Shown: positions 15,411 through 61,720 of the stretch, one piece after another
How the letters are laid out: each line of letters opens with the position of its first letter
Position numbering within the stretch: the first letter of the stretch is position 1
Origin: Okamejei kenojei
Lineage: Eukaryota
DNA length: 64,000 nucleotides
NCBI GenBank assembly: GCA_035221665.1
Contig: CM069153.1
Coordinates: forward strand, 24,924,001 to 24,988,000
Direction: 5' to 3'
Position numbers and translations under genes: made by a program
The notes under the pieces: generated by a model
Told to the model about the DNA's origin: nothing
The model's database searches: none
What the model saw: only the letters and a program-made list of their open reading frames with translations

Positions 15411-15480
15411 AAAGGTTGGAAGTATGTGTGCAATGTGATCATCTGAAAGTTATAACGAAAGGAGAACATTTGTCTTCCCA

Positions 15481-18305: not shown

Positions 18306-18425
18306 GTTCAAGCACAGCTCTTGCAATTTGCAGCAAAAAACATGGGTCTCAACCCTGCACTATTAGCCTCGCCAATTAACCCTCAGCATATGACTATGTT
18401 AAACCAACTTTATCAGCTGCAGCTG
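18306..18425 (+). CDS. TNRC6C: TNRC6C exon: Q-rich region (VQAQLLQFAAKN...LNQLYQLQL)
   Basis: ctctaaAG|GTTCAA ... GCTG|GTAAGT; 120 nt. Confidence 0.92.
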
Positions 18426-19187
18426 GTAAGTATTTTTGTCATCTTCAACCACAGTGATAATTTATGTAATCAAAACTGTATCTTAATATTCTTATTTTTA
18501 TTTTTTGGCCTCCAAGGTCAATTCACCTTGAAATTGTTTTCTATCATAAAGTACTACAAAACAATTCTGCACACATCTTCCTCGCATTAATCAAGTTTTT
18601 TTTCCCCTTTATGGCTTTGTGATTTACTTGCCCTGAATCACAAAAGAGGTTATATGAGCTGCAAACTGTTTCTCCATGGCTACTGCCAATGTAACAATCA
18701 ATTGTTTAGATGAATTCTCTGATCAGTTTCATAATGTCTGTACTTTTATGTTATACAGATGAGCTTCTGAAAAAGTTGACTCCTCAAGAGAATTGGTTAA
18801 ACTAAGTTAACATGGAAATCTAATGTTCCATTAGAACCAGCAGAATCATTGCCACCAAATGAAGCTGAATTTGCCAATGTTAGGATGACATTTTTAATTG
18901 AATAAAGAACACGTATTTTAAGAGTAGGTTCAGTTAATGCAAAGATTACATGAACCTCTGACAACTATGAAGTCATTGACATGAATTACCTTAGTCAATC
19001 AATGACTAAGGATAGGATAGAAAGAAAAGCAGTTTCTGTTGAAGCTTGCTGTTCTACAATAAATGTGAAGAATTAATTACCATTTACTGGATGTACAAGA
19101 AGAGTTTGAATTGCACTGTTAAAATGGTTCAAGACTTTCATTTGCAGGTTATTCTTAAAATTAAAAATAACAATGCTTTCTTTGCAG

Positions 19188-20974: not shown

Positions 20975-22010
20975 CTACATAGAAACATAGAAAATAGGTG
21001 CAGGAGGAGACCATTCGGCCCTTCGAGCCAGCACCGCCATTCATTGTGATCATGGCTGATCGTCCCCTATCAATAGCCCGTGCCTGCCTTCTCCCCATAT
21101 CCCTTGACTCCACTAGCCCCTGGAGCTCTATCTAACTCTCTCTTAAATCCATCCAGTGTCTTGGCCTCCACTGCCCTCTGTGGCAGAGAATTCCATAAAT
21201 TCACAACTCTGGGTGAAAACGTTTTTTCTCACCTCAGTCTTAAATTACCTACCCTTTATTCTAAGACTGTGGCCCCTGGTTCTGGACTCGCCCAACATTG
21301 GGAACATTTTTTTCCTGCATCTAGCTTGTCCAGTCCTTTTATAATTTTATATGTTTCTATAAGATCCCCCCTCATCCTTTTAAACTCCAGTGAATACAAG
21401 CATGGTCTTTTCAATCTTTCCTCATATGACAGTTCCACCATCCCAGGGATCAATATTGTGAACCTACGCTGCACTGCCTCAATCACAAGGATGTCCTTCC
21501 TCAAATTAGGAGACCAAAACTGTACACTATACTCCAGATGTGGTCTCACCAGAGCCCTATACAACTGCAGAAGAACCTCTTTACTCCTATACTGAAATCC
21601 TCTTGTAATGAAGGCCAACATTCCATTACCTTTCTTCACTGCCTGCTGTACCTGTAAGGCAACTTTCAGTGACCGGTGTACAAGGGCGCCCAGGTCTTGC
21701 TGCACCTCCCCCTTACCTAACCCCATTGAGATAATAATCTGCCCCCTTGTTTTTGCCGCCAAAGTGGATAACCTCACATTTATCTATATTATACTGCATC
21801 TACCACGCCTCTGCCAACTCACTCAACCTGTCCAGGTCACCCTGCAACCTCCTAACATCCTCTTCACAGTTCACACTGCCACCCAGCTTTGTGTCATCCG
21901 CAAACTTGCTAGTGTTGCTCCTAATTCCCTCTTCCAAATCATTCATATATATGGTAAACAGTTGCGGTCCCAACACCGAGCCTTGCTGCACTCCACTCAC
22001 CACTGCCTAC
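20975..22010 (-). mobile_element. CR1/HER1-like LINE, 5'-truncated (~1 kb), frameshifted RT
   Basis: SGVQQGSVLGP, SKFADDTKLGG, RPHLEYSVQFWSP; (CATAGAAA)n tail at 20978-20995. Confidence 0.92.
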
Positions 22011-24095: not shown

Positions 24096-25705
24096 AGCGG
24101 GCATCCTAAAGATGTGCAAGGACATTGAACTATTCTGTACCTCAAAACCTGTGTTCAAATTCCTTCCACATTTGTCTGGGCATTATTTTTCAGGAAAGTG
24201 ATTCTTTTTCTGCTGCCAGGTATTATTGCACTTTCCTAAAGCTAGTTGAGTTTTTTGAATGCATTCGGCAGAGCTGCTAATAATTTGTTTTGTTTTGGCA
24301 AGAGCAATTTTAGTGGTTACATAAATGTTATTGACGCTTGTAACTGGCGGGGTTGGCAAAATCACCAACAAATATCATCGATGCTCATGAAATCATCCTG
24401 TAAACAAGATAACACTGAAGGGTTCATGTTTACAAGTGTCCAACTATTACACATTGTGCAAGCCAAATCATCAGATTGGCTCATTAGTAAAAGATAATGT
24501 TATCAATAAAAGTAAAGGATCATGCTGAATGCATCTTGTAGGCGACTGTGAAATGACTCCAAATATTAAAACATCTCTGCAGTTGTCAGTATGACAACAA
24601 CATTGGTATTGGATTATACAGTAGCACCTCACATAGTGCTCAGAATGCATTGCCTGGATAAATGGGTGTTAAAAGGCTTATTGTAGCATTATGTAATGAG
24701 TGTTGTGTAGTTGATGGTGCTGCATTGTCAGAAACCTAGCACGAATGGTGTGCAGTTTGGAGAGCCCACCTATTTTGTGTGGGCTGCTGCAAGCCGTGCT
24801 ATCATTCAGTCTGAGATGTTGGGCTCTACGATTCTGTCATCACCTCTACGGAATATAATGTGAATATCCTCTTCATTTGGCTGCATAGCTTTCCCTGACA
24901 CAGAGATTTCTGTACAATAACAAGATCAATGGGCAGCAACCACCACTGATTAGATATCTCTGGGCTGGACAGAGCACATCCAAGAGGAAGTGCTCAGGGA
25001 AACTGAAGAATCAACTAGGTCTCTGAGCATGTAGAGCAGTCAGTGCCAATGACCTGTACCCACTTTGCCAGCCAAGATGCAGCCCTGAGCCCAACACCCA
25101 GCTACTGAGTGGCTGCGCAAGTAGCCACAGCCTACCCAGTACTATGTCTCGCACAACCCATTTGGGAAAGTCAGTGCTGCAGGCGCACCAGTGGAGAGCA
25201 GGGATTCATGCCAATTTCCAAGTGGAGCAGTACACAACAAAGGGCAGGTGTTCGCCCCAGGTTCATAACGCAGTAGCTTGCAGCCTGGGTATATAATTTA
25301 AAGTTCAGCTGGGTGTATACTTGCGTGAATTCTGACTGGAGGACTGAGAGCACACTATATCATGCCAGCATATATGTGCTAACACATCAGCAAATTTGTG
25401 GCAGATCTAAGCACGTAGCCAGCATAAAATATGGTCTCAAATAAGCAAGATCATAATTTTGAAAATGTTGCCAATATTCTTGAGAGATATTTATAGGGTT
25501 TGTCTTTGCTGGACATAGGCTTGGAAAAGTGTCATATTCGAGTTATAAATCAGCCATAGGGTTCTACAGGCTATGTTTTGCTCAAAGAAAAATAATTCAA
25601 ATGTTCTTAGATTCTTTTATGACTTTCACAGTTGATGGGCTGGAGGGAACTGTTTACATCGGCTTCACTGCAGCAGTACCTTTTTAACATGCTTTTCCCT
25701 TGCAG

Positions 25706-25873
25706 CTGGATTGATCCCAAATATGAATGTAAGCAACATGGAACTAAATGCTGGTTTATCCATGAAGGATCCGGCTCAAGCCCAATCTCGATTGAGGCAG
25801 TGGACCCACCCCAACTCTATTGAAAATTTAAGCAGCAATTCTTTATCATTGGATCAGAACCAGAGCAAGCATG
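25706..25873 (+). CDS. TNRC6C: TNRC6C exon: silencing domain with CIM-1-like QSRLRQW
   Basis: cccttgcAG|CTGGA ... CATG|GTAAGA; 168 nt, phase 1-1. Confidence 0.92.
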
Positions 25874-26557
25874 GTAAGAGCCCTGTAGGGCAGAGTACTT
25901 CCAGACCAAAATACTTTATTAGTCCATTGGCACTAAAATTATTTTGGTATCTCAGCAATTTTGTGTGAGAAACGCAGAATATAACTGTGTTTATGACAGA
26001 CTTTTCAAAACTGTTAGAAAATAAGGCCGGTTTCAATTTGTTTGGCCACTTAAAAGACTCTGATCTATGTATACACATTTAAAATGCTGAAAGCATGCTA
26101 CGTGGTAAATGAAAAAATGAATTAAACAAGCCATCATTTTGTCACACTGATTCAGTGCCGTCATCAGCCCAACTCATTTTGTTGTCTTGCTCATTCAACT
26201 AAAACAACAGACAAACTTGAAAACATGTAATGATATATTTTACCCCTCGAATAGCGAATTATCTGCGCACATTTCAATTGGAGCAATATACCGCAGAAGA
26301 TTTTTCAGTTGCAATATTTTCAGAGTAAACTGTGGTAACTTGTTTTACTTTGCCTATGAAATTTGTTTAGTTCTGAAGAGCTTTGATGCTGTAATAAAGG
26401 AAGTGATAGATCATCAAAGACTCGTTCTGAATTACCTCAGCATTTATTTAACTAACTGGGTCTAATTTAGCTACTGCTGAGATTCAGTGTCAGGACCATA
26501 GCAAAATGTTTTTATATCCATGACCTTGCCTTTCTGTCCCACTTAACACATATTCAG

Positions 26558-31222: not shown

Positions 31223-33694
31223 GTAGGGGTCCTTTTGCTTTAATTGCTGACCACGCCAAAAAATCTCCATTGAAAATGAGGATTGTAACAAAAGTTTAAA
31301 ATGCACCATCTAAATGTTGGTTTGTGCAGTGATTGGACCTATAAAATGGCTGGTGGAATTCAGTACAACAGATGAGCAATGGTCCTTTCTATGCAGTTTT
31401 TAATTGGTTATTTAATAATTCCTCCTCTTGAACTTGACTAGGAGCTGTATAACTTCCCCGCTACATCATGAAAATGGTGTTTTGGGTGGGGCTAGTGAAG
31501 AGCATAACATTTGTTGAAAGGCTCATTATTTCTTCAAATTTAATTTAATATTGTTTGACTCTCATTACCCAAACATGTTATGGCTTTTCTTTCCTCATAC
31601 TGAGTGCATGCTTGCGTTTCTTCATTCTGCTACAAAGCTTCAGTGATTAATGCTCAACTGAGATTCAAAATGAAATTGAGAATAAAAATGTTACCTTAAT
31701 TCCATTGATGGCTCAAGTTTGTATTCTTAATTTTTTGGGGTCTACATGCTGATGTACAATGTTGGAAAATACTTGTTGGACTTAATCTCAGCCACAAAGG
31801 ATTTCACTCGATTCGTTGATTGGAGAAGGGTCCTGACCAGAAATATTGCCTATCCATTCCCTCCACAGATGCAGCCTGACCTGTTGGGATATTCCAGCAT
31901 TTTGTGTGTTGAATTGTATAAAATTGTCATTTTTGTTTCACTCTGTTCAATGTAATATGCAAAACATGGAAGGGTATGGATCACATACAGGCAGAAGTCA
32001 TTCGGCATGTTTAGTATGGGCAAAGGGCCTATTCCTGTGCTGTACATTTTTTTTAAACATAAAGAACTGTGAAATATTTTTCATCCCAAATTTTAAAAAA
32101 TAATTTAAAGAACTGACAGTATTGAAACATTCATAGCCTTGGGAAATAACACCAAGTTATAATATGCAACCATTTGTTTCTATTTAGCTCTGAGAATATA
32201 ACCAAATTGCAAACAAAATATATATTTTCCGAATCCAAACAAATACATTTTCTAGTTGTCTGATAATTTGATCAACCTAGATGCTATCTTTTCAAGTGAT
32301 AGCTTGGTAAGTTGCTTATCATTTGTTCCTTCTGGATTTTATTCAGTTAGAAAAATACAAAAAAGATGCTCAGATTTGATCCATTCATTTTTCCTTCTAT
32401 TTTGCAGATGGAATTTACTTAAGCAGTTCCCAAAATCCCAAAAGTGGTAGCATAAGTCTAATTGTGACGACATCGGACAGGAACTTCCAAATGTTGACTG
32501 AGAGAGGCTGTTAGCAAGTAAAGAGATGTCTGACAAGTAGGAAGGTTTTAAATATGGGATAGAGTTCATGGTGCACCTCTTCCCATTAGAATGAATGGCA
32601 AGGCAGGCAAGATTAGGGAACCTACTCAGACTAGGGATGTTGAGACTCTGGTCCGGAAAAGAAGGTTGCTCATGTTGGGTATAGGCAAGTGAGATCAAGC
32701 TGGTCCCTTGAGTATAAGGGATGTGGGAGTACACTTAAGAAGGAAAACAGATGGGCAAAAATGGGGCATTGTAGATAAGGTAAGGAGAATCCTAAGCAAT
32801 TCCGTCAGCACATTCCGAATGATGTCTTCCTCAAGACTATATGAAATAGGGTAGCCTTGGTGGTTAAACATTGCTTCGCTATTCAGTTTAATTTATTGTT
32901 GTGTGAAATGTCATGTGTTTATTGTCATGCAGTGAAAAGCTTTTTGTTACAAGCTTTAATTTTAAAAAACACGGCATAAATGCCCTTCTCTGCTATTGGT
33001 TAGACTTGAGACAATCGGAACATGAATTGTGAACATGACCTTTGATGCAAGATAAGTTGATAAAAAATTTGCGAAGCATGTGAAAAGATGAAGTAAAATG
33101 ATAGGACTGGAACACTGAATAATTTGCCTTCCTTCCGTGTAGTAAATATGAATTCTTTGTTTTAAATAGATTCCTCATTACTTTTTCACATAAATTGTTG
33201 ACAAATGGCATGTGTCATTATTTTTAATATTCACTTTACAATTTCATTGGAGGAAAGATGACCAAAAACTTGAATTTGCAGTTGTTTGCTTTTAACCATG
33301 GTATTTATGCCGGTTTAGAGCTAACCATAGAATGGTTGTGTGTGTCAGCTGGCATTTTTCCAGTTTGTTTTCTCGGTTTTATCACAGTAACAAATCGACT
33401 GATGCATTAAAAAAAATAAATTTGTAAATGTAACAATTAAGTTTGAGAATGATTACAGTTCTTTCCGAGCACTTCAGTGCCTCCTCGACCCACATGCACC
33501 TTTTTCCTCCCAACTTTATTCTCCAAATCCCATTTTCCCTTTTGCAACTTCCTTGCCGCATTTGCCTCCTTACTTTCATATTCACCATCTTCTGACAAAC
33601 TCTAACGTTCCCATCTTATTTGTGTTCTCTTGCACAGATGGGGATTTGTGCCTTGCTTTCTTTTAAATGAATGCCATCATTCTTTTAATAGAAA

Positions 33695-33807
33695 GGAAGG
33701 AACTGCAGATGCTGGTTTGAAGAATGGTCTCGACCCAAAAGTTTGCCCGTTCCTTCTCTCCATAGATGCTGCCTGACCTGCTGTTACTCCAACATTTTGT
33801 GTCTGTT
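33695..33807. mobile_element. Short Penelope-derived insertion (tail on minus strand plus inverted arm)
   Basis: GGAACTGCAGATGCTGG then TGAAGAATGGTCTCGACCCAAAA; direct repeat ATTCTTTTAATRGAAA at 33679-33694 and 33808-33823. Confidence 0.7.
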
Positions 33808-35873: not shown

Positions 35874-36628
35874 GCAAGAAGCGATCATTTCTTGTATTGT
35901 GAAAGTAACCTCAGCTTGCCTATTCATTCATCGTAATTAAGTTTGAACATCGCTACAACTGAAGTTTACAATTGATACTTTTTGAATGGAAATATGCAGT
36001 TTTACACACTTGCATTTCTAAAATTATTATTTGATTTAACTTTAAGTTTAAAGTTATAACCATAGACACAAGAATATTAAATTGAGTCTATCGACCTTTT
36101 AAAACATTTGTAAATGTGTGAACAGTGAAAACATTCTGTCAACTGGTTTTCATATAGTAGCAAAATCCCACTTCACATTGTTTTGAAAGGGAGGGTTAGG
36201 TTTCATTTGTAGCTATGTATCATCATCTCGTTCTGAAAAAATATACCAAAATGTCTTTTCACATATAGGTGAAGATTAATGTGTTGGTTGTGTTTAATAT
36301 GATCTGTTCCCTGATGTAAATCCTCCCACTTTAGCATCACTACACCAATGTGTTTTATTTCTCCAAATGCCTATTTGCCCTTGCCCTATGCCCACTAAAA
36401 CAGTGTATTCTCTGCTTATAAAGCAATGTAGGATTGGAGAAACATCTGCAGTTTACACCACAAAATTACATTGCATTGCTAGTTTTTTATAATTTTTCCT
36501 TTTTCAGTGTCATTTGTTTTCCATAAGCTGGAGAAATAGGTTGTTCATCTTCAATCTGTCTAGATTTAGTAGGATTTGGGAGTTCAAAGTTTTAGCAGTT
36601 TTTTCTTCAGAATGATATAATGACATAG

Positions 36629-36794
36629 GGTAGACAAAAATGCTGGAGAAACTCAGCGGGTGAGGCAGCATCTATGGAGCGAAGTAAGTAGGGCGCCTAT
36701 TTCCTTCGCTCCATTGATGCTGCCTCACCCACTCAGCTTCTCCAGCATTTTTGTCTACCTTCAATTTTCCAGCATCTGCAGTTCCTTCTTAAAC
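36629..36794. mobile_element. Penelope-derived fold-back insertion (~64-bp hairpin plus tail)
   Basis: 36629-36759 is a near-perfect palindrome; tail CCAGCATCTGCAGTTCCTTCT; direct repeat ATAATGACWTAGGGTAG at 36617-36633 and 36795-36811. Confidence 0.8.
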
Positions 36795-36966
36795 ATAATG
36801 ACTTAGGGTAGTGGTTTACAGCTTGAATGATAGAATGAGTAAATGTTGTGCAGCCAGATAATTTATCTCTTAAATCCATTTTGTGTCAAATTGCTACATA
36901 AAATTGTGGCTACTAAGTGCATGCTCTCAGATTGATAAGTAAGGGTGGTTTGTTCTTTTGCTGCAG

Positions 36967-37106: not shown

Positions 37107-38151
37107 GTAAGCTACCTGCATAATTCCAGACATGAAAGTTTTGAACAATTTAGTATTTTGAATTTGAATTTGTCGTGATGAATCAATGAATTGATAGAAA
37201 CACTTCTGTTCTCCTCATTTATATCAGAAAGGAAATTATTTGTTATCCCAGCAACTGCTCCTCAGTATGGCATGTCATCTGATCAATCCAATTTTTTTTG
37301 TATTCCGCCACAGCCTCCTTGTTTGCCAAAATGAAGGATTAATTGGTGTCTAGCATGCAACATAGGACCCGTGTGTTGCCATGTACTTTGGTTTGTGGCT
37401 AATTCTTCACAAACCATTAGTCTGTTTCTTTTAGGGAGTCTCGCTGATCTAACCTCCTCCATTAATCCCTCCTTGAACATTGTCTCTGAAGAAATACTGA
37501 GAAATGCACATTGGTAGAATTTCTCAGTTCAAAGAGCACTCCCATCTCTGCCCCTCTATTTGAACTCCACATGGGCAGGTTCAGGGAGGATTGTAACCAA
37601 GGGTGCCTCCGAATCTTTTCCTCACTATTATTTTGATCATAATGTAATTGTCAGAACTGGAACTGACAAAAATCACTTTGAATGCATTGATGCCATTTAT
37701 TTTTAAGATAAATCAGGGACAAAAAAATTGATCTTGACGCACTAAAATAACAGCATGTTTTGTGTCAGGACTCTTAAAATGTTGCTTATTCTCTCCAGAG
37801 ACTGCGTGACCCGCTGATTACTCACTTATTTAGTCTTTTTTTGTTAACCAGCATCTGCAGTTCCTTGCATCTAGCATATTTTAAAAGCCTGCCAACCTTC
37901 TGAAATAACAGGTGTAGATATTTGAGTGACTGTTTGCCGAGAGACAGAATTAGAACAGTACTATCCACTAAATTTAGTCCAAGCTTTATAATAGTAGCAG
38001 TTCTTGGTATTGTTCCATAAATATTTTTTGTCTGAACTAACGTATAGTGTGCATGTAAAAGTTTGCATTTATTGACACCATTCTGAATATGTAAGCCTTT
38101 GACGTGATCTGGTTTACTGCGCTCTCAACATTTGACTTTTCCTTTGACTAG

Positions 38152-38512
38152 GTGTGTTCTGGGAAACACTACTATCCTCGCTGAATTTGCCAGTGATGAG
38201 GAAGTAAATCGTTTCTTTGCACAAGGTCAATCGCTCTCTCAGACCTCCAGTTGGCAGTCTAACACAGGAACAAATCCGAGCCGACTTGGGTCAAGCACCA
38301 ACTCTCACGGATTGATTCGCAATGATCTAGGTCACTGGAATACTACAAGCTTGAGTGGGAAAGGAACCAATGACCTCCTCTGGAGTAGTGTCCCTCAGTA
38401 CTCCAGCAGTCTATGGGGTCCTCCTAACAATGATGACAGCAGAGTAATTTGCAGCCCTACACCTATAAACACCTTACTCCCTGGTGACCTACTCAGTGGA
38501 GAATCAATGTAG
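38152..38512 (+). CDS. TNRC6C: TNRC6C last coding exon: RRM end and C-terminal W-containing region, TAG stop
   Basis: tttgactAG|GTGTGTT; [12 protein letters not shown]...SSLWG...[12 protein letters not shown]. Confidence 0.95.
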
Positions 38513-42392: not shown

Positions 42393-43495
42393 TCAGAGTA
42401 TTGAGTTTAGAAGTTGGGAGGTCATGTTGCAGTTGTATAAGACCGCATTTAGAATATGGCTCAGCACTTCAACTCCCCCTCCCATTCCGTATCCGACCTC
42501 TCGGTCCTGGGCCTCCTCCACGGCCAGAGTGAGCAACACCGCAAGTTGGAGGAACAGCACCTCATATTCCGTTTGGGGAGTCTGCATCCTTTGGGCTTGA
42601 ACATTGAATTTTCTCAATTCTGTTAACCCTTGCTGTCTCCTCCCGTTCCCACCTCTCCCTCAGCCCTCGGGCCCTGGCATTCCCTCTATCTCTAACTCCC
42701 TCCCCCACCCTAGTCGCACCAGCTTCTCATTTTCACACCACAAACAGCTTACAATGGCTTGTTCCCTGTGTCATCGATATTTTTTTGCATATCTTTCATT
42801 CATTATTCTTTATCTCTCCACATCACCGTCTATATCTCTCGTTTCCCTGATCCCTGACCAGTCTGAAGGAGGGTCTCAACCCGAAACGTCACCTATCTCC
42901 TTCGCTCCTTAAATGTTACTGCACCCGCTGAGTTTCTCCATCTTTTGTGTAACCCTTTAGAATATTGTGTTCAGTTTTGGGCACCATGTTATAGGAAAGA
43001 TATTGTCCAGCTTGAAAGGGTTCAGAAGAGATTTACGAGGATGTTGCCAGGATTAAAGGGTGTGAGCTATAGGGAGAGGTTAAGTAGGCTGTGTCCTCTA
43101 TTCCATGAAGCATCGGGGAGATCTTATGGAGGTATATAAAATCATGAGAGGAATAGATTGGGTAGATGCACAGAGTATTTTACCCAGTGTAGGGGAATCG
43201 AGGACTAGAGCACATAGGTTCAAGGTGAAGGGGAAAATATTTAATAAGAATCCGAGGGGTAACTTTTTCACACAGAGGGTGGTGGGTGTATGGAACAAGC
43301 TGCCTGAGGAGGTAGTTGAGGCTGGGACTATCCCATCGTTTAAGAAACAGTTGGACAGTTACATGGATAGGACAGGTTTGGAGGGTTATGGACCAAGCGC
43401 AGGCAAGTGGAACTAGGGTAGCTGGATCATTGTTGGCCGGTGTGGACGAGTTGGGCCGAAGGGCCTGTTTCCACACTGTATCACTCTATGACTCT
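42393..43495 (+). mobile_element. CR1-like LINE 3' fragment interrupted by a Penelope insertion
   Basis: EVMLQLYK..PHLEY | LEYCVQFWAP...ERVQKRFTRMLPG...RGNFFTQRVVGVWNKLP; tail GGGCCGAAGGGCCTGTTTCC. Confidence 0.88.
42458..42955 (+). mobile_element. Penelope-like element 3' fragment: GIY-YIG endonuclease C-terminus plus 3' repeat with hammerhead-like motif
   Basis: Translates QHFNSPSHSVSDLSVLGLLHGQSEQHRKLEEQHLIFRLGSLHPLGLNIEFSQF; TSD TTTAGAATAT at 42448-42457 and 42956-42965. Confidence 0.85.
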
Positions 43496-45625: not shown

Positions 45626-47023
45626 AAACTAATGTTTTTTTACTTTATGAAAGACCAGTTCATAACAATCATTCAATATGTATTTGTTACAATACAAGAA
45701 ACATTGAAGTTTGTCGCTTTTAGGACTAATGTGTAGGAAATTTTGAAAGGTAGTTTTGTTGAATTGTATGACAATTAATAAATTGTATTCAGACTATTTT
45801 CCAGTGCAGTATCCAGTGGTATTTATTTCTCATCAACACAGTTTAAATGAAATAAATATCATGGGCAATCCAACTTCACTCTACAAATAAATGTATCCCT
45901 CTGTGAAATTATTTTTTCCCAGCTTACAAAACCATCCTACAGACTCGAAAGTACTATAAATTTATGAACTGGTAATGTAACACGTGCAAAATGCAACCTA
46001 TTACAACCTTCTTTGAAAGTTGGTTTAACTGACGGGTCCCAAACATAATATTTTGAAACAATAAACATTTCCTAGTGAAAATTTATCAATGGATAATTGC
46101 ATTCAGCAACTGTACAAAAGGAGTAGACAGTATTCATTGTCAATATTCTTGCGATTGTCCAGTCAGTTTTCCTAAACTATAAATGTAGAATTTAGCAAAG
46201 CTAGGTGATAGTGTGAGTATGAGAAGAATGCAGAGAGTCCACAAGACAATATTGGCAAGTTACATAATTGGGAAAGACATGGAATTTAACATTGAGAATT
46301 ATAATGTCATCCATTATGGTGGAAAAAACAAAGTATTTTTGGTTAAATTAAAATTTGTTCTTCAGAAAAACCTTGATGACCCTTTCATTGAAAGTTAAAT
46401 GTGAATGTAGAGCTGAAAATGAGGAAGGCAAACAATATGTCCAAAGATAGACACAAAAAGCTGGAGTAACTCAGCGGGTCAGACAGCATTTCTGGAGAAA
46501 TGGAATAGGTGACGTTTCGGGGTCAAAACCCTTCTTCAAACTGAGAGTCAGGGAAATGAGATATAGACGTTGATGTAATAGAACAAATGAATGAAAGATA
46601 TGCAAAAAAGGAATGATGATAAAGGAAACAGGCTATTAGCTGTATGCTAGGTGAAAACGAGTTACATACAAAGTCTCAACACGATGACTTTGAAGCTAGT
46701 ACAACAGCTTGGGTGTGGGAGGGGTGGAGAGAGGGGATGCAAGGGCTACTTGAAGTTAAAGAAATCAATATGCTGCTGGGTTGTCAGTTGCCCAAGCAAA
46801 ATATGAGGTGCTGTACCTCCAATTTCATTTGGCCTCACTCTGACAATGGAAGTATGAGGCCAAATGCAAATTAGAGGAACAGCACCTCATATTTTGCTTG
46901 GCTTGGGCAGCTTATAACCCTGTGGCATCAATTTAATATCTCTAACTATCGGTAACCCTTGCATCCCCTCTCCATTCCTTCCCAAGTCGTTGTACTAACT
47001 TCAAAGTCGTCTCGTTGAATCTC

Positions 47024-49033
47024 AAGAAAGATTCTAAGGGGAGTAGGAGGCAACCGTGGCTGACGAGATAAGTTAGGGATAGAATAAAATTTAAAGAAAA
47101 GATGTATAACACAGCGAAGAGTAGTTGGCAGCCAGAGGATTGGGAAACTATCATAGAACAACAGGAGGAAACAATACGGGCTGAAAAGATGAAGTACGAG
47201 GGGAAGCTGGCCAGGAATATAAAGAAGGACAGTAAAAGCTTCTTTAGATATGTGAAGGGAAAAAGAGTAGCAAAATCAGATGTGGGTCCCTTGAAGGCAG
47301 ACACGGGTGAAATTATTATGGGGAACAAGGAAATGGCAATGGAGTTGAACAGGTACTTTGAATCTGTCTTCACTAAGGAAGACACAAACAATCTCCCAGA
47401 AGTACTGGAGGACAGGATCAAAGGGGGTAGAGGAGCTGAAATAAATTATCATTAGGCGAGAAATAGTATTGGTTAGGCTAATGGGACTGAATCCCCTGGG
47501 CCTGATGGTCTGCATCCCAGGGTCCTCAGGGAGGTGGCTCTAGAAATAGTGGATGCACTGGTGATCATTTTCCAATGTTCAATAGATTCAGGATCAGTTC
47601 CTGTGGATTGGAGGATAGCTAATGTTATCCCACTTTTCAAGAAAGGAGCAAGAGAGAAAACGGGGAATTACAGACCAGTTAGCCTGACTTTGGTGGTGGG
47701 AAAGATGCTGGAGTCAATCATTGAAAAGGTAATAATGGGGCTTTTGGATAGCAGTAAAATGATTAATCCAAGTCAGCATGGATTTATGAAAGGGAAATCA
47801 TGCTTGACTAATCTTCTGGAATTTTCTGAGTATGCGACAAGCAAAATGGATGAAGGGGAGCCAGTGGATGTAGTGTATCTAGACTTTCAGAAAGCCTTTG
47901 ATAAGGTCCTGCATGGGAGACTGGTGACTAAAATTAGAACACAAGGTATTGGGGGTAGGGTGTTGACGTGGATAGAAAATTGGTTGGCAGACAGGAAGCA
48001 AAGAGTAGGAGTGAACGGGTCCTTTTTGGAATGGCAGGCAGTGGCGAGTGGAGTGCCGCAAGGCTCGGTGTTGGGGCCGCAACTGTTTATCATATATATT
48101 AATGATTTGGAAGAGGGAATTAGGAGCAACACTAGCAAGTTTGCAGATGACACAAAACTGGGTGGCAGTGTGAACTGTGAAGATGTTAGGAGGTTGGAGG
48201 GTGACATGGACAGGTCGAGTGTGTGAGCAGATGTGTGGCAGATGCAGTATAATATAGATAAATGTGAGGTTATCCACTTTGGTGGCAAAAACAAGGGGGC
48301 AGATTATTATCTCAATGGGGTTAGGTAAGGTGGAGGTACAGCGAGACCTGGGTGTCCTTGTACACCGGTCACTGAAAGTTGGCGTGCAGGTACAGCAGGC
48401 AGTGAAGAAAGCTAATGGAATGTTGGCCTTCATAAGAGGATTTCAGTATAGGAGTAGAGAGGTTCTTCTGCAGTTGTATAGGGCTTTGGTACAACCACAT
48501 CTGGAGTATTGTGTACAGTTTTGGTCTCCTAATTTGAGAAAGGACATCCTTGTGATTGAGGCAGTGCAGCATAGGTTCACAAGATTGATCCCTGGGATGG
48601 TTGTCATATGAGGAAAGATTGAAAAGGCCATGCTTGTATTCACTGGAGTTTAGAAGGATGAGGGGGAATCTTAGAGAAACATAAAATTATAAAAGGACTG
48701 GAAAAGCTAGATGCAGGAAAAATGTTCCCAATGGTGGGCAAGTCCAGAACCAGGGGCCACAGTCTTAGAATAAAGGGGAGGCCATTTAAGACTGAGGTGA
48801 GAAAAACTTTTTCACCCAGAGAGTTGTGAATTTGTGGAATTCCCTGCCACAGAGGGCAGTGGAGGCCCAATCACTGGATGGATTTAAGAGAGAGATAGAG
48901 CTCTAGGGGCTGGTGATATGGGGAGAAGGCAGGAACGTGTTATTGATTTTGGACGATCAGCCATGATCACAATGAATGGCGGTGCTGGCTCAAAGGGCCG
49001 AATGGCTTCCTCCTGCACCTATTTTCTGTTTCT
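47024..49033 (+). mobile_element. CR1/HER1-like LINE, 5'-truncated (~2 kb), RT with frameshifts
   Basis: NYRPVSLT, QHGFMKGKSCLTNLLEF, YLDFQKAFDKV, SGVPQGSVLGP, FADD; 3' tail matches 20975-21300. Confidence 0.93.
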
Positions 49034-49210
49034 AACCCGTTCTCACCTAACCCACAGCTAACTATGACCTGTTTCCTATATAATTGTCCCTTTTTTAAGT
49101 ATCTTTTATTAATTTGATCTATATCACCATCTATATCTCAAGTTTCCCTTTCCCCTGACTCTCAGTCTGAAGAGAGGTTTTGACCCTAAACGTCACCTAT
49201 TCCTTTGCTC

Positions 49211-49352
49211 TTATGGCTAAGGGAATCGAGGGATATGGGGGGAAAAGCCGGAACGGGGTACTGATTTTGGATGATCAGCCATGAACATATTGAATGGCAG
49301 TGCTGGCTCAAAGGGCCAAATGGCCTACTCCTGCACTTATTTTCTATGTTTA
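49211..49352 (+). mobile_element. CR1 3' tail fragment inserted in the Penelope arm
   Basis: GGCTAAGGGAATCGAGGGATATGG...GGCCTACTCCTGCACTTATTTTCTATGTT. Confidence 0.75.
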
Positions 49353-49629
49353 CAAAGATGTTGTCTGACCCGCTGAGTTACTCCAGCTTTTTGTGTCTAT
49401 CTTTGCTTTAAACTGGCATCTGCAGTTCCTCCCTACACAAATAATATGTCCACCTTTTTCTGTAAGGGTGAGTACAAATATCATATTCCAAGGACAGAGG
49501 ACCCCCAGTGAGACTACATCTGTCTTTTCCCCCTACATAATAGAGGCATTGCATTGAATGTTCACCAGATTCATTCTTGGGAAGGTGCATTTGTCATAGG
49601 AGACTACTTTAGGAAGACTGGGACTACAC

Positions 49630-49680: not shown

Positions 49681-51260
49681 AGCAAGAAACAAACAGCTAG
49701 AGGAACGCCGCAGGTCAGACATAATCTATGGAGAAAAGTGGACACAAGACATTTCACTCCACCGATGATGTGTGACCCGCTAAATCCTTCCAGTTTTTTG
49801 CACTAGATCCTGGAATCTGTCATTAAAATAATGAAATTTGCAATCTTCTGGGCCCAGATGTGGAGTCAACTTTTTCCATCCCTTGGATATCTAGGACCAG
49901 GAGTTATGGTCTCAGAAATAAGAGATTGCTACTCAAGACTGAACGTGAAGCCATTTAATCCTGAGAACAGTAAATCTTTGAAAATTTCCTTGCAAGTGTC
50001 TAATTCAAAAGGATGCAATTCCTCTGTACTAAGTCGGGGGAAAACGTGGATGCCATTTCACTGGGAGTCTATGCTTGGAACACGATGTATCTACTCTTGC
50101 ACTCAAATAACCTTTCAGAAGTCAAACATAATTTGCTGCCTTACATTCACTTTAGCTTTCAATGAAAGAGTCACCAAGGTTTTCCTGAAGAACAACTATC
50201 AATCTCTAAAACTTTGTATTTTCTCTACCATAATACACATAATTCTCAATATTACATCCCATATCTTTGCCTATTCACATCACTTGCCTATATTATTTTG
50301 CAGACTCTACATTCTCCTTGTAGCCCACACTGCCACCCAGCTTTGTACAGGGGACATTCAATTCTACACCTTGAAGATTAGAAAAATGATAATAGTTTCA
50401 GTCACAAATACACTGACAATGAATATAGGCCACTCCTTTTTTACAGTTGTAGAATGCAGTTACCCATTTACCAAGGGATTTTTGGTTTCTAATTATAGTC
50501 AAGCCAGATATCGATAGATTTTTAGCTATGAAGGGAATCCATTGATTTGCAATTAGTGTAGGAAAGTGCAGGCTGGGGGGACATGTAGATGGGACATGTT
50601 GGTCAGTGTGGGCAGGTTGGGCCGAAGGGCCTATTTCCTCACTGTATGACTGCGGAAACCATTTAAATGCCCATTGTCAGTGAGCTATTCTCCACTTCCT
50701 TGCAATCAGTAATATTGCTTCATTCTCCAAGTCATTCCCTCAACTTGTGATACTACTTGACAAACATAGGACAATATGAATGAGTTGTTTATTTTTGTGA
50801 AACCTGTTCCTAAAATTCTTGCAGTCGTTAGTTGCAACAGTCTCTATTTTCGATGTTAATTTTGTAAGTGGGTATGGTGAAGAGGCATAAACCTAACTAA
50901 AGGAATTTGATTTTTAAATGTTAATTGACTCGAATGACATTCCTGCCATTTTAGTCAGTTGTGCAAATCAATCCCCAGTCCAGCATTCAGATTGTTCCCC
51001 AGTCAGATGGTGTACTGCAATAATTGGATCTTATCCTGAACATTTGATAGGTGTATGTTTTTTTTTCCAATCCCTGGTTTAATTTTCTTGTCTTAATTCA
51101 AAAGGGACTAATTATGGATTTTGGTTTCATTGGTATTATCGAGCACTTGCTGTGAACGACAAGGCCTTTGTTTGTTTAAACAAAAGCGCTGCGTGGTAGT
51201 GGAGGCAGATACGACAATGGCGATAAAGATCCTTTTAGATAGCCACATTGATATGTAAGG

Positions 51261-51356
51261 ATAGACACTAAAAGCTGGAGTAACTCAGCAGGACAAGCAG
51301 CATCTCTGGAGAGAAGGAAAGGGGTGACGTTTCGGGTCGAGACCCTTCTTCATACT
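51261..51356 (-). mobile_element. Penelope-like 3' repeat fragment with near-intact hammerhead motif
   Basis: Minus strand AGT-ATGAAGA-A-GGGTCTCGACCC-GAAAC-GTC-ACC. Confidence 0.75.
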
Positions 51357-51574: not shown

Positions 51575-51768
51575 AAAAAAGACACAAAGTACTGGAGTAA
51601 CTTAGCGGATCAGACAGCATCTCTGCAGAACATGGATAGGCAACTCTTTGAGCTGAGGCCCTTCTTCAGAGCCTACTGAGCCATGTTCTCCAGAGGCACT
51701 GTCTGTGGAGAACACTCCAGCACTTTGTCCTTTTTGTAAGCCAACATCTGCCGTTCCTTGTGTCTACA
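51575..51768. mobile_element. Degenerate Penelope-derived fold-back
   Basis: GACACAAAGTACTGGAGTAAC... / ...ACTCCAGCACTTTGTC plus CCAACATCTGCCGTTCCTT tail. Confidence 0.65.
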
Positions 51769-53942: not shown

Positions 53943-54455
53943 TGCTGCCTCAAGAAGGTGGCATCTAATATTGAAGTCCCCCACCATCTGGGACATGCCC
54001 TCTTCCCACTGCTGCCATCAGGCAGGAGGTTGAGAAACCTGAAGTCCCACACCATCAGGTTCAGAAACAACTATTTTCCAGCAACTATCAGGTTCTTGAA
54101 CCAACCTACACAACCCTAACCCTACCTCAGCAAAGGAACACAACAGCCCACATCTTGCATTTTTATGAACTTGTTTTCTTTTCTAATTATGCTTTTGCAT
54201 GATTTTGTTTTGCACAATCTTTGAGGTTTTATTTTTGTTTGTCTGAGTCTATATACGATGATGCTGCTAGCAAGATTTTTCTTGTGGGTTACACAAAAAG
54301 CTGGAGAAACTCAGTGGGTGCAGCAGCATCTAAGGAGCGAAGGATGCTGCTGCACCCGCTGAGTTTCTCCAGCTTTTTGTGTAACCCTCGATTCTCCAGC
54401 ATCTGCAGTTCCTTCTTTAAGATTTTTCTTGTACTTGTTAATGACAATAAACTTG
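53943..54455 (+). mobile_element. Rex1/Babar-type LINE 3' end (ORF C-terminus plus 3'UTR)
   Basis: Translates PHHLGHALFPLLPSGRRLRNLKSHTIRFRNNYFPATIRFLN, a recalled Rex1 C-terminal motif; ends GACAATAAACTTGA. Confidence 0.7.
54286..54418. mobile_element. Penelope-derived fold-back nested in the Rex1 3'UTR
   Basis: GGGTTACACAAAAAGCTGGAGAAACTCAG / CTGAGTTTCTCCAGCTTTTTGTGTAACCC; 14-bp TSD AAGATTTTTCTTGT at 54272-54285 and 54419-54432. Confidence 0.85.
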
Positions 54456-54922: not shown

Positions 54923-55126
54923 CCCAAAAATCTGGAGTAACTCAGCGGGAAAGGCAGCATCTCTGGAGAGAAGGAATGGGTGACGTTTCGGGTCGAGACC
55001 CTTCTTCGTCTCGACCCAAAACGTCACCCACTCCTTCTCTCCAGAGATGCTGCCTGTCCCGCTGAGTTACTCCAGATTTTTGTGTCTATCTTCAGTTTAA
55101 ACCAGCATCTGCAGTTCCTTCTTACA
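54923..55126. mobile_element. Penelope-derived fold-back (~80-bp arms plus tail)
   Basis: Arms meet inside the hammerhead motif; 14-bp TSD GTTTTCAAGGTTGA at 54909-54922 and 55127-55140. Confidence 0.88.
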
Positions 55127-55749
55127 GTTTTCAAGGTTGATTTATGTTCAGTAATATCAATTAATGTAGCATGGAGCTACAGCTACACGAACAAAACAAT
55201 CGGATTTGTAACCAATGAAGCATTATCCGAAACAGCTCTTGATGCAATTGTCTTGAAATGTATAAAACACAGCAGTTTGTAATTGGGATTAGAATTCAAG
55301 TAAATTTGATCAATTGATATGCTGAACTCAACACTAACTGGTTTAAAGTGAAAAGCTTCAAATATATTTTAACTGCAATTGCATGTACTGAATGCTAAAT
55401 AAATCTTAGGTGTCTGTCTCTAACATCTCCTTATTGATTTTGAAGAATAATTTGAACATCATAAATAAAGTCCATCTAATAATGGCACTATCCAACTTGA
55501 TAACAGAATTTCAAATGCATTGTTCACAATACAATTACTTTGAGTGTTTGATTTCACATTCATAATGCAAAGTACTATTTTTAAGAAAGAAAATGGTAAT
55601 GTTTGTTTCTTTTTCATTACAGTATATGGCTGTAACCAAAAAAAGACCAAGTTCTGGAGTAACTCACCAGGTCAGGCAGCATCTTTGGGTAACCATGTTT
55701 TTTTTTCTGGGGTAAATCAGATGGAACCTTTGTGGTACTTGTTTTGGAA

Positions 55750-56052: not shown

Positions 56053-56309
56053 TATGGTGTATAACTCTGACGGCATAGAGGTTGTCTATGATGCTAATTA
56101 ACACAATGGCAATTTGAAACTAATATTTTCCTAATATTATCATGTTTACAGCCTGAAGTGATTTTAATGTGGTGCATCAAAACTTTGTATGTCTCATTTT
56201 CAAAGAGAGGTGAGTTTTTCCATGCTTCAGGTAAGATCATGAATGGAGTCTATCTGCTGCATTTAGTTGTGAAATATTCCATGGTTTTATTCAGTATAGA
56301 GTTTAAAAT

Positions 56310-56440
56310 AGACACACACACTGATGGAGTAACTCAGCGAGTCGGGCAGCATCCCTGGAGAACGTGGATAGGTGATTTTTTTTGGGGTCAGGACCCTTCT
56401 TCAGACTGATTGTAGGAGGGGGGAAGAAAAGAAAGTCGGA
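56310..56440 (-). mobile_element. Penelope-like 3' repeat fragment
   Basis: GGAGTAACTCAGC..GGCAGCATCCCTGGAG..GGACCCTTCTTCAGACT. Confidence 0.7.
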
Positions 56441-56911: not shown

Positions 56912-59808
56912 TTTTTTTTTTTTTTCAAAATATACTTTATTCGAATGATAAATATATACAATCCATTAACCTTGCGGAAAATCCATCCGACATTTTCGGA
57001 GGCTGTACAATAGATCAATACAGTTTAGACATTTCTTTCCCCCAAATTTCCACAAATCAGTCCCCCACTCGTGCCACAGTGGCATGGGATACCTTCCCTT
57101 ATATTGAGGGGCGTCTCCACCATATCGTACCCCGCATGTCCAGCAGCGGAAGGGCGTTAGACTGTGGCCCTCCCCCACCGAGCCTTGGCGTTGGCTGCAC
57201 CGAGCTTCAGTGCGTCCCTCAGCACGTACTCCTGCAGTCTGCAGCGGGCCAGTCAGCAACATTCCCTGACGGACATCTCGCTCTGCTGGGTGGTGAACAA
57301 TGCTCGGGCAGACCAAAGGGCGTCTTTTACCGAGTTGATGACCCTCCAGCAGCACTCGATGTCAGCCTCTGAATGTGTCCCTGGGAACAGTCTGTAAATC
57401 ACCGAGTCCTCTGTGACGGAGCTGTTCGGGATAAAGCGTACCAGGGACCCTTGCATTTTTCTCCAGACTCTTTTAGCAAACCCACACTCTGTAAAGAGGT
57501 GGGCAACCGTCTCCTCGCCATAGCAGCCGTCCCGAGGGCAGCGTGCACTGGCAGTGAGGTTCCGACGGTGCAGGAAGGATCTGACTGGGAGGGCTCCCCT
57601 CACCGCCAGCCAAGCCAGGTCTTGGTGCTTGTTGGTGAGTTCTGGCGATGAGGCATTTTGCCAGACAAGCTGGGCAGTCTGCTCAGGGAACCACGCCACC
57701 GGGTCCATAGAGTCCTTTCCCTGCAGTGCCTGCAGGACATTCTGTGCTGACCACTGCCCGATGGACATGTGGTCAAAGGTGTTGGTCCGGAAGAACCCTT
57801 CCACCGACGACAGATGGGGCGGCAATGTCCAGCTGACTGGCACATTGCGTGGCACCTGCGCCAGGCCCATCCTTCTCAACACCGGGGAGAGGTAGAACCT
57901 CAGCAGGTAGTGACACTTGGTGCCCACGTGCCTTGGCTCTACACTCCGCCTGATGCAGCCACACACGAAGGTGGCCATCAGAATGAGGGCGACGTTGGGC
58001 ACGCTTTTACCCCCGTTGCCTGCTGACTTGTACATTGTGGCCCGTCGCACCCGGTCCATCCTCGACCCCCAGATGAACTGGAAGATGGCCCGGGTGATCC
58101 CTGTGGCGTATGAGAGGGAGGGACAGGCCACACTTGTGCCAAGTACAGCAGCCCCGAGAGCACCTCACACCTGATGACCAAATTCTTTCCCGTTATGGAG
58201 AGGGAGCGTTGCCTCCACAGCTCCACCTTCCTCCCCACCCTGGCTATCCGCTCCAGCCAATTTTTGTTACATGCCTCAGCCCCCCCAAACCAGATCCCCA
58301 GCACCTTCAAGAAGTCAGGCTTGATGGTGAAGGGGACGGAAGATCTGTCGGGCCAGTTGCCAAAGAGCATGGCCTCGCTCTTCCTGCGGTTCACCCTGGC
58401 TCCCGTGGCCGACTCAAACTGGTCGCAGATACTAATCAGTCTGCGAACCAACCCTGGATCCGAGCAGAAGACAGCGACATCGTCCATGTACAGGGAGGTC
58501 TTTACTTGAATGCCCCCACTGCCTGGCAATGTCACTCCTCTTATGCCAGCATCCTTCCTGATGGATTCAGCAAAAGGTTCAATACAGCAGACAAACAAGA
58601 CAGGAGAGAGAGGGCAACCCTGCCTGACTCCAGACCTTACCCACCCATTGATTTGGACTGCACTACGGATGTTGGTGTAGAGCAGTTTGATCCAATTCCT
58701 GATTCCTTCCCCAAAACCCATTTTGGAGAGCACGTCCCTCATGTACGTGTGCGAAATCCTGTCGAAGGCCTTCTCCTGGTCCAAGCTGACTAGGCAGGCA
58801 TCCACCCGTCTGTCCTGCACGTAGGCAATGGTATCTCTCAGCAGCGCTAGGCTGTCTGAGATTTTCCTGCCAGGTACAGCACAGGTTTGGTCCGGGTGGA
58901 TCACCTGTCCCAGAAGAGACTTGACCCGGTTGGCGATGGCCTTGGACAGGATCTTGTAGTCCACATTCAAGAGTGTTTATGGGTCTCCAATTCTTTAGGT
59001 CCTTCATCTCCCCTTCTGCTTGTAGATTAGGGTGATGCTGCCCTTCCTCATGGAGTCATGCTACCCAGCTAGAAGCATGTCGTTGTACACTTCTAGCGGG
59101 TCCGGGCCCATACAGTCCCACAGAGCAAATACAACTCGGCCGGTAAGCCATCGCTTCCGGGAGTTTTATTCGAGTTCAAAGGAATGGATGGAGCCAGTCA
59201 GCTCCTCTAGGGTCAGTGGTTGGTCCAGACTCTCCCGCTTGCTGTCCTCCAAGACCTCCATGATTGAGGACAGGAAGTTCTGGGAGGAGGTACGGTCTGT
59301 GGTCTTTTGGTCATACAAATCTGTGTAAAAGGATTTGCAGATCCTCAGCACGTCTGTCTGTGAGGATGCTACCGTGCCGTCCTCCTCCCTAAGGCTGTTC
59401 ATCACAGAGTTCCCCCTGTGAACCTTATGGAAGAAGAAACGTGAGCACGTCTCATCCTGCTCCACATGGCGGACCCTAGATCGGAAGATGATCTTGGAGG
59501 ATTCAGAGGTGAAGAGCTGAGCTTGCCGGTCCTTCAACTCTCTAAGTTCCTCCCTCACATCCACCCCGCTCGACTGCAGAAGGAGCCGTTGCTGCAAATC
59601 TGTCTGGAGTTGGCACAATTCCCTCTGACTCTGTCTTGCTCTCTGAACCCCTTTAATTATGAAGAACCTCTTAATGTTCTTCTTGGTTGCTTCCCACCAG
59701 AGTGTGGGGGAGTCAAAGAGGGGCCTCACCGTTCTCCAACATGCATAGTCCCTCTTTAGCTCCTCGACATTCTCTGGGGTCAACAGTTTTGTGTTTAACT
59801 TCCACGTA
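56912..59808 (-). mobile_element. Tx1/L1-clade non-LTR retrotransposon, 5'-truncated, ORF2 frameshifted
   Basis: NVDYKILSK, SLDQEKAFDR, GVRQGCPLSP, YMDD, and Cys-rich CPRDGC..ETVAHLFTEC. Poly(A) (T-run 56912-56925) with AATAAA. TSD TTACTGCATTAC at 56900-56911 and 59809-59820. Confidence 0.92.
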
Positions 59809-60313
59809 TTACTGCATTACTTGAAGTCTCAATTCTCCAAGAGCGAGGCATTTGTTGGTGACTTAGAGAACATGTGCCATGTTTTGTACTTGTCAGGGTC
59901 ATTTCTGTGTTTCACTGGGGAAATTAACAACCCAAGAAATTTGCCACGTTCTTTAATCTTTGCAGTACATGTCTGTAAAGTGGTGAAATTAGCTCGCCTC
60001 CCAAATAAGGCATGATATTCTTGTGCCCAACACACGATATACTGTCATTCAACCAAGGAATCTGCATAATTTCCTTTCTTGGCGCAAATTAAGCATTGTT
60101 TAAAGTGCTGAATTACTCTAAGTAAGTGAGTATGGATTTGGGCAACATTTCTTGTACGGGAGGCCTGATTCCAGTCATCATCTAATATGGTGGGTCATGC
60201 AAAACCATGTAAAGAGCTTTTATTCTTGTCTGCATATTCCAGCAGGTGCCACCAGTGTGGCAATTTTTTAGCTGGCTTTTGAGCTCTATTTCGGCACTTT
60301 GGCTTTCATCATT

Positions 60314-61720
60314 AGACAATAGGTGCAAGAGTAGGACATTCAGCCCTTTGAGTCAGCACATTCAATGAGATCATGGCTGATCATCCACAATCAGTACTGC
60401 CTTCTCCCCATATCCCTTGATCCCTTTCAGAGCTTTATTTAACTCTCTCTTGAAAGCATCCGGAGAATCGGCCTCCACTGCCTTCTGAGGCAGAGAATTC
60501 CACAGATTCATAACTTTTTGGGTGAAAAAGTTTTTCCTCATCTCCATTCTAAATGGCCTACCCCTTATTCTTAAACTGTGGCGCCTGCTTCTGCACTCCC
60601 CCAACATCAGGAACATGTTTCCTGCCTCTAGCGTGTCCAAACCCTTAATAATCTTATATGTTTCAATAAGATTCCCTTTCATCCTTCTAAATTCCAGAGT
60701 GTACAAGCTCAGTCGCTCCATTTCTTCAGTCCAGCCATCCCGGGAATTAACCTCGTGAACCTATGCGGCAGTCCCTCAATAGCAAGAATGTCCTTCCTCA
60801 AATTTGGAGACCAAAACTGCACACAATACTCCAGGTGTGGTCTCACCAGGGCCCTGTACGACTGCAGAAGGACCTCTTTGCTCCTATAGTCAACTCCTCT
60901 TGTTATGAAGGCCAATATGCCATTAGCTTTCTTCACTGCCTGCTGTACCTGCATGCTTACTTTGACTGATGTACAAGGACACCCAGATCTCGTTGTACTT
61001 CCCCTTTTCCTAACTTGACACCATTCAGATAATAATCTGACGTCCCGTTCTTGCCACCAAAGTGGATAACCTCACATTTATCCACATTAAACTGCATCTG
61101 CTATGCATCTGCCCACTCACCCAACCTGTCCAAGTCAGCCTGCGTCCTCACAGCATCCTCCTCGCCGTTCACACTGCCACCCAGCATCGTGTGATCTGCA
61201 AATTTGCTAATGTTACTTTTAATCCTTTCATCTGTCACTGCCTGTCATTCTGAAAGGGACCTGTTAATCCCTGCTCTTTGTTTCCTGTCTGCCAACCAAT
61301 TTTCTATCCATGTCAGTAACCTACCCCCAGTACCATGTGTTCTAATTTCCTAGTTACCTCCTCAAAAAATTCCAGAAGATTAGTCAAACATGATTTCCCC
61401 TTCATAAATCCATGCTGACTCAGACTGATCCTGTTACTGCTATCCAAATATGCCGCTCGCTATTTCACCTTTTTAATCTCCAGCATCTTCCCCACCATCG
61501 ATGTCAGGCTAAATGGTCTATAATTTCCTGTTTTCTCTCCCCCTCTTTTTTTTTTAAAAATGGACAACATTAGTTACCCTCCAATCCACAGGAACTGAAT
61601 CTATAGAATATTGGAAAATGACCATCGATTCATCCACGATTTCTAGAGCCAGCTCCGTAAGCACCCTGGGATGCAGACCACCCTTCAGTCCCATCAGTCT
61701 ACCCAAAACCATTTCCTACC
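60314..61720 (-). mobile_element. CR1/HER1-like LINE fragment with internal deletions
   Basis: KKANGILAFITRG, RPHLEYCVQFWSP, FFTQKVMNLWNSLP; QHGFMKGKSCLT region near 61380-61420; abuts the LTR at 61721. Confidence 0.88.

Follow-up and report, generated by a model that had tools for sequence, protein, structure and literature searches.

Hammerhead repeats in a skate genome appear to be mostly by-products of the insertion mechanism of one Penelope-like retrotransposon

The window, a 64-kb stretch of the genome of the skate Okamejei kenojei, carries GW-rich exons on the plus strand (192-2936, 7597-7968, 18246-18590, 25636-25968 and 38108-38512) that we take to belong to a TNRC6/GW182-like gene; a Pfam search with these exons gave no match. 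The introns of this gene hold seven or eight of the repeat pieces listed below. Also present are CR1-like LINE copies (20980-22008, 47460-49034 and 60313-61715; 79-91% alike), such LINEs being the insertion targets of many Penelope stubs at the loci fetched from the genome, on the minus strand a young non-LTR element (57253-59816; presumably Tx1/L1-like) that has RVT_1 and zf-RVT domains, broken integrase fragments of an LTR retrotransposon, also on the minus strand (62245-63237; Integrase_H2C2 and a weak rve_3), and an imperfect, MITE-like palindrome of 255 bp (3358-3613; arms 69% alike) unrelated to the Penelope end.

An earlier note on this DNA had described a minimal hammerhead consensus in a Penelope-like repeat and listed six named and five weaker copies in the window. 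All of them are present at their places and on their strands, except that the copy at 54978-55027 is in fact two copies joined head-to-head. With a profile of the hammerhead and the tail that follows it, for which 66 near-exact copies were used, 20 pieces are detected in the window. The features are as follows.

4307-4395, plus strand: hammerhead-and-tail stub, old and decayed (profile)
15476-15598, unstranded: tail-only pieces of an old head-to-head pair (profile)
17365-17463, minus strand: hammerhead-and-tail stub (profile)
31821-31908, plus strand: hammerhead-and-tail stub, old (profile)
33715-33806, plus strand: hammerhead-and-tail stub, old (profile)
36625-36796, unstranded: head-to-head pair without hammerhead, one arm tailed; target duplication starts at 36617 and 36795
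42448-42457, plus strand: left 10-bp target site duplication (partner 42956-42965), inside a LINE fragment
42458-42955, plus strand: 5'-truncated copy of a young Neptune/Nematis-type Penelope-like element, 95.6% identical over 499 nt to the full-length element L183, spanning the ORF end, 3' UTR and hammerhead and stopping at the first 3' end site
42459-42626, plus strand: final 55 codons of the region for the GIY-YIG endonuclease, 100% identical to residues 1136-1190 of L183
42861-42892, plus strand: minimal type I hammerhead, predicted to cut after 42890
42861-42862 with 42891-42892, plus strand: stem I of this hammerhead
42863, 42869 and 42870, plus strand: its core, with C3, the A9>G lesion and the extra A, respectively
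42871-42874 with 42879-42882, plus strand: its stem II, with GAAA at 42883-42886 and then the ACGU palindrome
46432-47018, minus strand: older-subfamily copy with hammerhead at 46508-46542; its upstream end enters an inverted repeat containing GIY-YIG-end sequence
49054-49437, plus strand: older copy comprising pLTR and hammerhead (49164-49197) and interrupted by a LINE fragment (~49213-49350)
49689-49754, minus strand: tail piece, decayed (profile)
51258-51356, minus strand: hammerhead-and-tail stub, starting just ahead of the core
51575-51670, minus strand: hammerhead-and-tail stub, old (profile)
54286-54418, unstranded: tail pieces of a young head-to-head pair, one arm tailed; 14-bp target duplication at 54272 and 54419
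54923-55126, unstranded: head-to-head pair of hammerhead stubs joined at 55007/55008, one arm tailed; 14-bp target duplication at 54909 and 55127
55646-55688, minus strand: short tail piece (profile)
56306-56408, minus strand: hammerhead-and-tail stub, old, with GAAAC-GUC destroyed

The LINE fragment around 42448-42457 is one that we take to be CR1-like. Each window copy has a core lesion, as the earlier note had claimed: A9>G in the copy at 42863, G12>T at 49167, C3>T plus one extra inserted base at 46542 (minus strand) and C3>A at 51353 (minus strand), while the copy at 55007 (minus strand) starts only after U4 and that at 56408 (minus strand) has an A-run in place of GAAACGTC. A loose 27-letter pattern is weak evidence by itself, with 12 matches in the window against a chance mean of 5.8 (12 being reached by 3 of 100 shuffles). 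An Rfam scan of the window gave no hammerhead match even at E=10, and 17 further loci, L183 among them, had neither a hammerhead nor a U6 match at the gathering score.

The source of these pieces was reached by walking upstream from matches to the GIY-YIG end. A genome search with this 55-residue end gave 104,217 first-look candidates, and the 150 of them that were scored were all 100% identical; among the matches listed (20 stretches), L183 has the only frame of more than 1,000 codons. It is a full-length element flanked by an 11-bp target duplication, with 1,190 codons between two 179-bp pLTRs that are 100% identical and each contain an intact hammerhead. The 5' pLTR extends 46 nt beyond the point at which most other copies start (the 5' hotspot, see below). 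Pfam recognises RVT_1 (E 4.5e-4) and GIY-YIG (E 0.0027) in the frame, both below the curated cut-offs, and a search of solved structures gave no match to the RT-endonuclease fragment. The frame also carries what we take to be the DKG, GRPI, YIGET and GLN motifs. By its sequence, the parent is thus an EN+ Penelope-like element (PLE), with a single ORF predicted to encode a reverse transcriptase (RT) and, at its C-terminal end, a GIY-YIG endonuclease. Because the linker contains CX4CX2C (residues 1057-1065), and the accessible part of PMC8557442 gives CX2-5CxxC between RT and endonuclease as the Neptune/Nematis criterion, the element is placed as Neptune/Nematis-type; the same Cys linker rules out the Poseidon clade. 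The insertion marks of EN+ PLEs are all found: pLTRs in partial tandem, inverted 5'-truncated neighbours, a tail of 30-40 nt at one end and target duplications. As a separate observation, a conserved ATG in the tail of L183 opens 37 codons that lead to a donor-like AAG/GT (3213-3330), which suggests an intron at the ORF start; in the older subfamily the frame from this ATG closes early. The L183 tail can also fold, AGAUGCUG pairing with CAGCAUCU.

The motif match and the full-length element together bear out that the repeat contains the minimal type I hammerhead of a PLE. It agrees feature by feature with the consensus of metazoan PLE minimal hammerheads (min-HHR) as presented in the available text of PMC4209133: common to both are the CUGANGA and GAAA cores, an extra, unpaired base between positions 9 and 10.1, the G10.1-C11.1 pair and the palindromic 15.2-16.2 without a loop 3, and a NUH triplet is present here as well. 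As in that text, the motif lies in both pLTRs, is mostly solo and has nearby copies on opposite strands. Two details of the consensus in the earlier note need refining: stem II has 4 bp with a CUCG loop (the 2-nt loop drawn there is not feasible), and where GUC^ACC had been given, the youngest subfamily reads GUC^GCC. The non-CpG core columns are 95% conserved on average, and across subfamilies only 1 of 21 non-CpG columns varies in the hammerhead versus 16 of 57 in the tail (p=0.03). Since the core is kept across subfamilies, it must matter to the source elements somehow.

The high copy number that had been claimed is supported, and it is very high. In a genome sample of 88 evenly placed 10-kb stretches (880 kb, a size that limits the power of the cut-site and covariation tests), the profile finds 381 pieces, versus 0 when these stretches are reversed; relaxing the cut-off slightly gives 386 matches, which make up 3.6% of the bases of the sample. 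Extrapolation gives ~1.2 million hammerhead-and-tail pieces genome-wide (bootstrap 1.04-1.38 million). The 30-letter consensus of the earlier note has 14,101 exact matches in the genome, and a pattern for an intact core with stem II and a 2-bp stem I has 53,813 (control 0 for each). Among 227 sampled copies with C3, the core is intact in 60, and 41 of those 60 have a full stem II. Against the 53,813 exact intact cores stand ~4,000 for coelacanth and ~9,000 for Xenopus in the available portion of PMC4209133, where min-HHR in fish Neptune elements were already reported; a literature search found nothing specific on skate or chondrichthyan Penelope hammerheads, and the supplements of PMC4209133 and of a 2026 preprint (see below) may list fish or shark motifs. 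The kind of ribozyme is thus already known for PLEs, and its extreme abundance is what this genome adds.

The copy number should not be read as a sign of self-cleavage at work. Stem I comprises only 2 bp (of 168 copies, 97 have U-A and 43 have U-G as the first pair, and 100 have an A-C mismatch at the third position). In this it resembles D. virilis, whereas Schistosoma has 4-5 bp; the 4-bp helix II, with little sequence variety and no compensatory changes, is unlike the set described in the text seen of PMC4209133. Covariation in stem II, which had been proposed as a check, was looked for in 168 copies: a U-G wobble occurs in 12, changes that keep the pairing are one-sided, and there are no two-sided changes beyond scattered singles and CpG decay, the subfamilies being too alike for power. 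RNAalifold gave no consensus structure for 25 copies, and no conserved partner was seen by eye for a pseudoknot of loop II in place of stem I, a candidate that was rejected. In folding predictions for the monomer, stem II has a pairing probability of 0.02 and stem I of 0.002, the 5' strand of stem II pairing with bases 3' of the cut site instead; the predicted dimer fold is not the hammerhead either. The hammerhead fold is therefore disfavoured in the monomer as modelled. For this class, weak activity that depends on a dimer or on protein is reported in the accessible parts of PMC4209133, PMC11167929 and PMC6765202. The ribozyme of the skate element is likewise predicted to be weak and to need a partner RNA, and probably also the protein of the element. 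That tens of thousands of intact cores are tolerated in a vertebrate genome is probably because they adopt an inactive fold when alone.

A regular property of the copies is where they begin. The 227 sampled copies with C3 comprise 106 solo copies, 82 in head-to-head pairs, 34 that continue into shared pLTR sequence and 5 in tandem; 188 of the 227 start a few bases ahead of the core. In the 106 solos, element letters are found at 76% at -1 and have fallen to background by -6, and a few of these copies resemble diverged pLTR by eye. This edge is unlike the loss of copies inside the motif and tail, which is ~1% per base. Among 289 non-inverted copies, 32 have target duplications of at least 10 bp (2 in the control), and of these 32, 26 end within 10 nt of C3. 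For the young subfamily, exact copies preceded by a non-element base number 4,073 before GT and 3,580 before AGT; 60 of these that were inspected were 39 solo, 20 inverted, 1 tandem and 0 continuing into pLTR, some of them repeating one composite. The starts of 54 unselected young copies fall at -5 to +1 in 22 cases, inside the hammerhead in 15, further upstream in 13, near the cut in 1 and just after the cut in 3. The edge spreads over about -5 to +1. A cap-derived G at this edge is no more than a candidate: by eye, a G precedes 36 and 44 of the first 100 matches listed in the GT and AGT searches, respectively, but at the junctions bounded by duplications a plain extra G stands in only 1 of 10 and 2 of 13 cases. 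A pyrimidine tract, a CTRAC-like word and CAG directly precede stem I in every subfamily, so that the spot resembles a splice acceptor, and the sequence at about -3 or -2 fits what we take to be the initiator, YYANWYY.

The other end is also confined. Of the 32 duplication-bounded copies, 27 end at +82 to +101 and 5 at +124 to +139, clustering near +92 and +128; the ~35 nt between these sites correspond to the 30-40 nt tail of PLEs. Neighbouring copies in the 880-kb sample are arranged head-to-head in 77 pairs versus 3 tail-to-tail, and exactly one arm has the tail in 46 of 55 scorable head-to-head pairs (27 expected; p=3.5e-7). The three window pairs show the same one-arm tail, with duplications of 14-16 bp. 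The arms of a pair agree at 83% of diagnostic subfamily sites, versus 54% for random arms; private changes common to both arms (19 of 467, versus a control mean of 11 of 427 and a control maximum of 20) are not clearly above control.

These ends are best read, with a probability of about 0.6, as those of run-off cDNAs: most copies would have been made by reverse transcription up to the 5' end of uncut element RNA, with the hammerhead cut likely a rare side path and not the step that makes the template. As judged from DNA alone, the element RNA would start at about -3 or -2 from C3, and the limit of 2-3 bp on stem I in the 5' copy would follow from such a start. RT would begin inside the RNA at either 3' end site, as it does in vitro in the anole element, and the RNA would carry both start sites twice, once per pLTR. 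Priming in the 3' pLTR would then yield long 5'-truncated copies such as 42458-42955, and priming in the 5' pLTR, where the RNA end would be reached within ~95 or ~130 nt, would leave the stubs, while a dimeric protein that primes on both target strands may account for the head-to-head pairs. For the anole element, the accessible text of Frangieh (2024; PMC11167929) describes two internal RT start sites that bound the tail, nicking and extension of both target strands by a protein predicted to be a dimer, protein-assisted hammerhead cleavage, and uncut RNA as the main template. That element (PAc, a Poseidon element of Anolis carolinensis) is like the skate element in the hammerhead at the pLTR-ORF junction, the two 3' end sites, the 30-40 nt tail, the evidence of insertion from uncut RNA and the activity on both strands. 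It differs in that the Neptune/Nematis Cys linker is found here, in that the long frame starts ~130 nt after the hammerhead here but inside stem II in PAc, and in that a fixed 5' stop ahead of the hammerhead, found here, is not described for PAc in the text available. As in EN+ PLE insertions, going by the parts seen of PMC8557442 and PMC3846280, the copies have 5' truncation, an inverted 5'-truncated neighbour, a tail at one end and target duplications of ~8-16 bp; unlike those insertions, most here consist of the last 95-130 nt alone, single or as an inverted pair. The copies are, then, mostly by-products of the insertion mechanism of one retrotransposon and not a separate ribozyme family. 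Conservation of the core is a point for which the run-off reading has no explanation.

A self-cleaving RNA family at work, which the earlier note had proposed, is not supported so far. Starts at the cut site are not enriched, neither genome-wide in the young subfamily (169 at the cut, and 172 at a base three positions further on that served as control) nor in the 880-kb sample (8 versus 8.4 expected), and a cleavage footprint at GUC^ was rejected on these counts; few copies (5 of 227) have a tandem neighbour with which to dimerise, and to this come the one-sided changes in stem II and the other fold preferred by the monomer. In the older subfamily, the base before the cut, the cut itself and the base after it have 97, 246 and 362 raw starts; once indels and inverted joins are removed (30 loci each), ~32, ~115 and ~84 remain, at best a mild excess at the cut. 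Two loci, L351 (138-430) and L352 (137-375), hold duplication-flanked four-unit arrays with units of 64 and 59 nt, which start at the predicted cut, reach as far as the first of the two 3' end sites and contain no hammerhead core. These arrays resemble telomerase-like reiterative copying. Tail-to-cut joins occur at L356, L362 and L214. Rfam found no U6 at 14 solo loci that start at the cut, and with it no U6-to-cut-site chimera.

The alternative that makes most of these loci is the model of Cervera and de la Pena, in which dimer cleavage in pLTR-ORF-pLTR transcripts gives a unit-length circle; the circle would be the rare productive template that rebuilds partial tandems, and the stubs would be by-products of linear RNA. 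It would suit the conservation of the core across subfamilies, the arrays and tail-to-cut joins, and the 5' pLTR of L183, which by reaching past the hotspot implies that RT passed that point. A template jump or a read-through tandem transcript accounts for L183 equally well, however, and the array loci had been picked: 12 loci starting at the cut and 8 control loci were chosen by tail-like preceding letters, with 0 arrays among the 8 controls. Because none among 15 tandem joins taken without selection begins exactly at the cut (tandem neighbours numbering 12 among the 386 sample matches), the arrays remain a hint. With no genome-wide excess at the cut, and with the predicted folds of monomer and dimer given above, the circular route is unlikely to be the productive one. 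A related comparison is with animal non-LTR retrozymes (Li, Clavereau, Pollet 2026, bioRxiv 10.64898/2026.07.22.740005; PMC7229834), which, in the portions accessible, are likewise short, non-coding and PLE-derived with a type I hammerhead; they are tandem units each with a hammerhead, whereas tandem copies are 5 of 227 here and the four-unit arrays hold no complete one.

Quite improbable is that the stubs propagate themselves as a non-autonomous, SINE-like family, being re-copied by means of an internal promoter and the RT start sites that they contain. The huge copy number and the internal promoter of D. virilis Penelope (PMC2377424) would suit such a family, but members that continue into pLTR occur in all three large clusters (16 of 97, 7 of 28 and 9 of 24), young stubs are ~96% identical to the pLTR of the full-length element, and few private changes are common to both arms of a pair. 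The two oldest clusters (23 and 6 copies) are without a pLTR-continuing member, although pLTRs of that age may be too diverged for detection. Less probable still is that the 5' hotspot has its origin not in a transcription start but in splicing, as the pyrimidine tract, the CTRAC-like word and the CAG present in all subfamilies might suggest, and as in D. virilis, where an intron ends at this spot and the start site lies further upstream (PMC4209133 and PMC2377424, in the parts available), or in fold-back of cDNA at the CAG-T-CTG palindrome, a self-priming proposed for head-to-head PLE copies in the accessible part of PMC3846280: target duplications adjoin the motif, which means that copying did not include an upstream exon, just 3-6 nt separate the putative branch point from the AG, and fold-back leaves the solo stubs unexplained. 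The single spliced junction tested, that of a spliced or back-spliced retrocopy in which a donor-like site near the start of the ORF meets the acceptor-like site that precedes the hammerhead, has 0 genomic copies and was rejected.

The run-off reading invites a bolder and more tentative proposal, namely that PLEs may have a strong-stop step like that of retroviruses. Transcription would start at the first base of the hammerhead, a dimeric RT would prime at two internal sites, on the two strands of the target, and the run-off product would either be inserted as a stub or jump to the 3' pLTR and so rebuild the end repeat; the cut, 30 nt from the cap, would switch the RNA off by decapping or give access to a rare reiterative or circular route, and would not be what frees the template. 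If this holds, run-off stubs number ~1 million here, some 3.6% of the genome. A literature search found neither the strong-stop step nor the run-off reading of stubs stated. The use of this genome lies in an insertion record that is both large and regular, with a young near-intact element, fixed copy ends and one-tail pairs; going by what is available of PMC2377424, PMC8557442 and PMC11167929, the record bears on how PLEs rebuild their end repeats and on the role of the hammerhead. Most worth taking to the bench are the fixed 5' edge and the pairs with one tail.

Some stubs have been carried along in other repeats. At L305, L307, L311, L319 and L320 (G000 C1, ~1300-3035), 5 of the 30 loci of the GT search, a stub that has an intact hammerhead and a short inverted tail lies near one end of another repeat, in a composite that is 94-98% identical between loci. 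The frame downstream of the stub, for which Pfam gave no match, looks to us like a DIRS/Ngaro gag. A second composite, at L292, L295 and L297 (~1284-1780), has the same rearranged inverted junction at each locus, which indicates that it was amplified as a unit.
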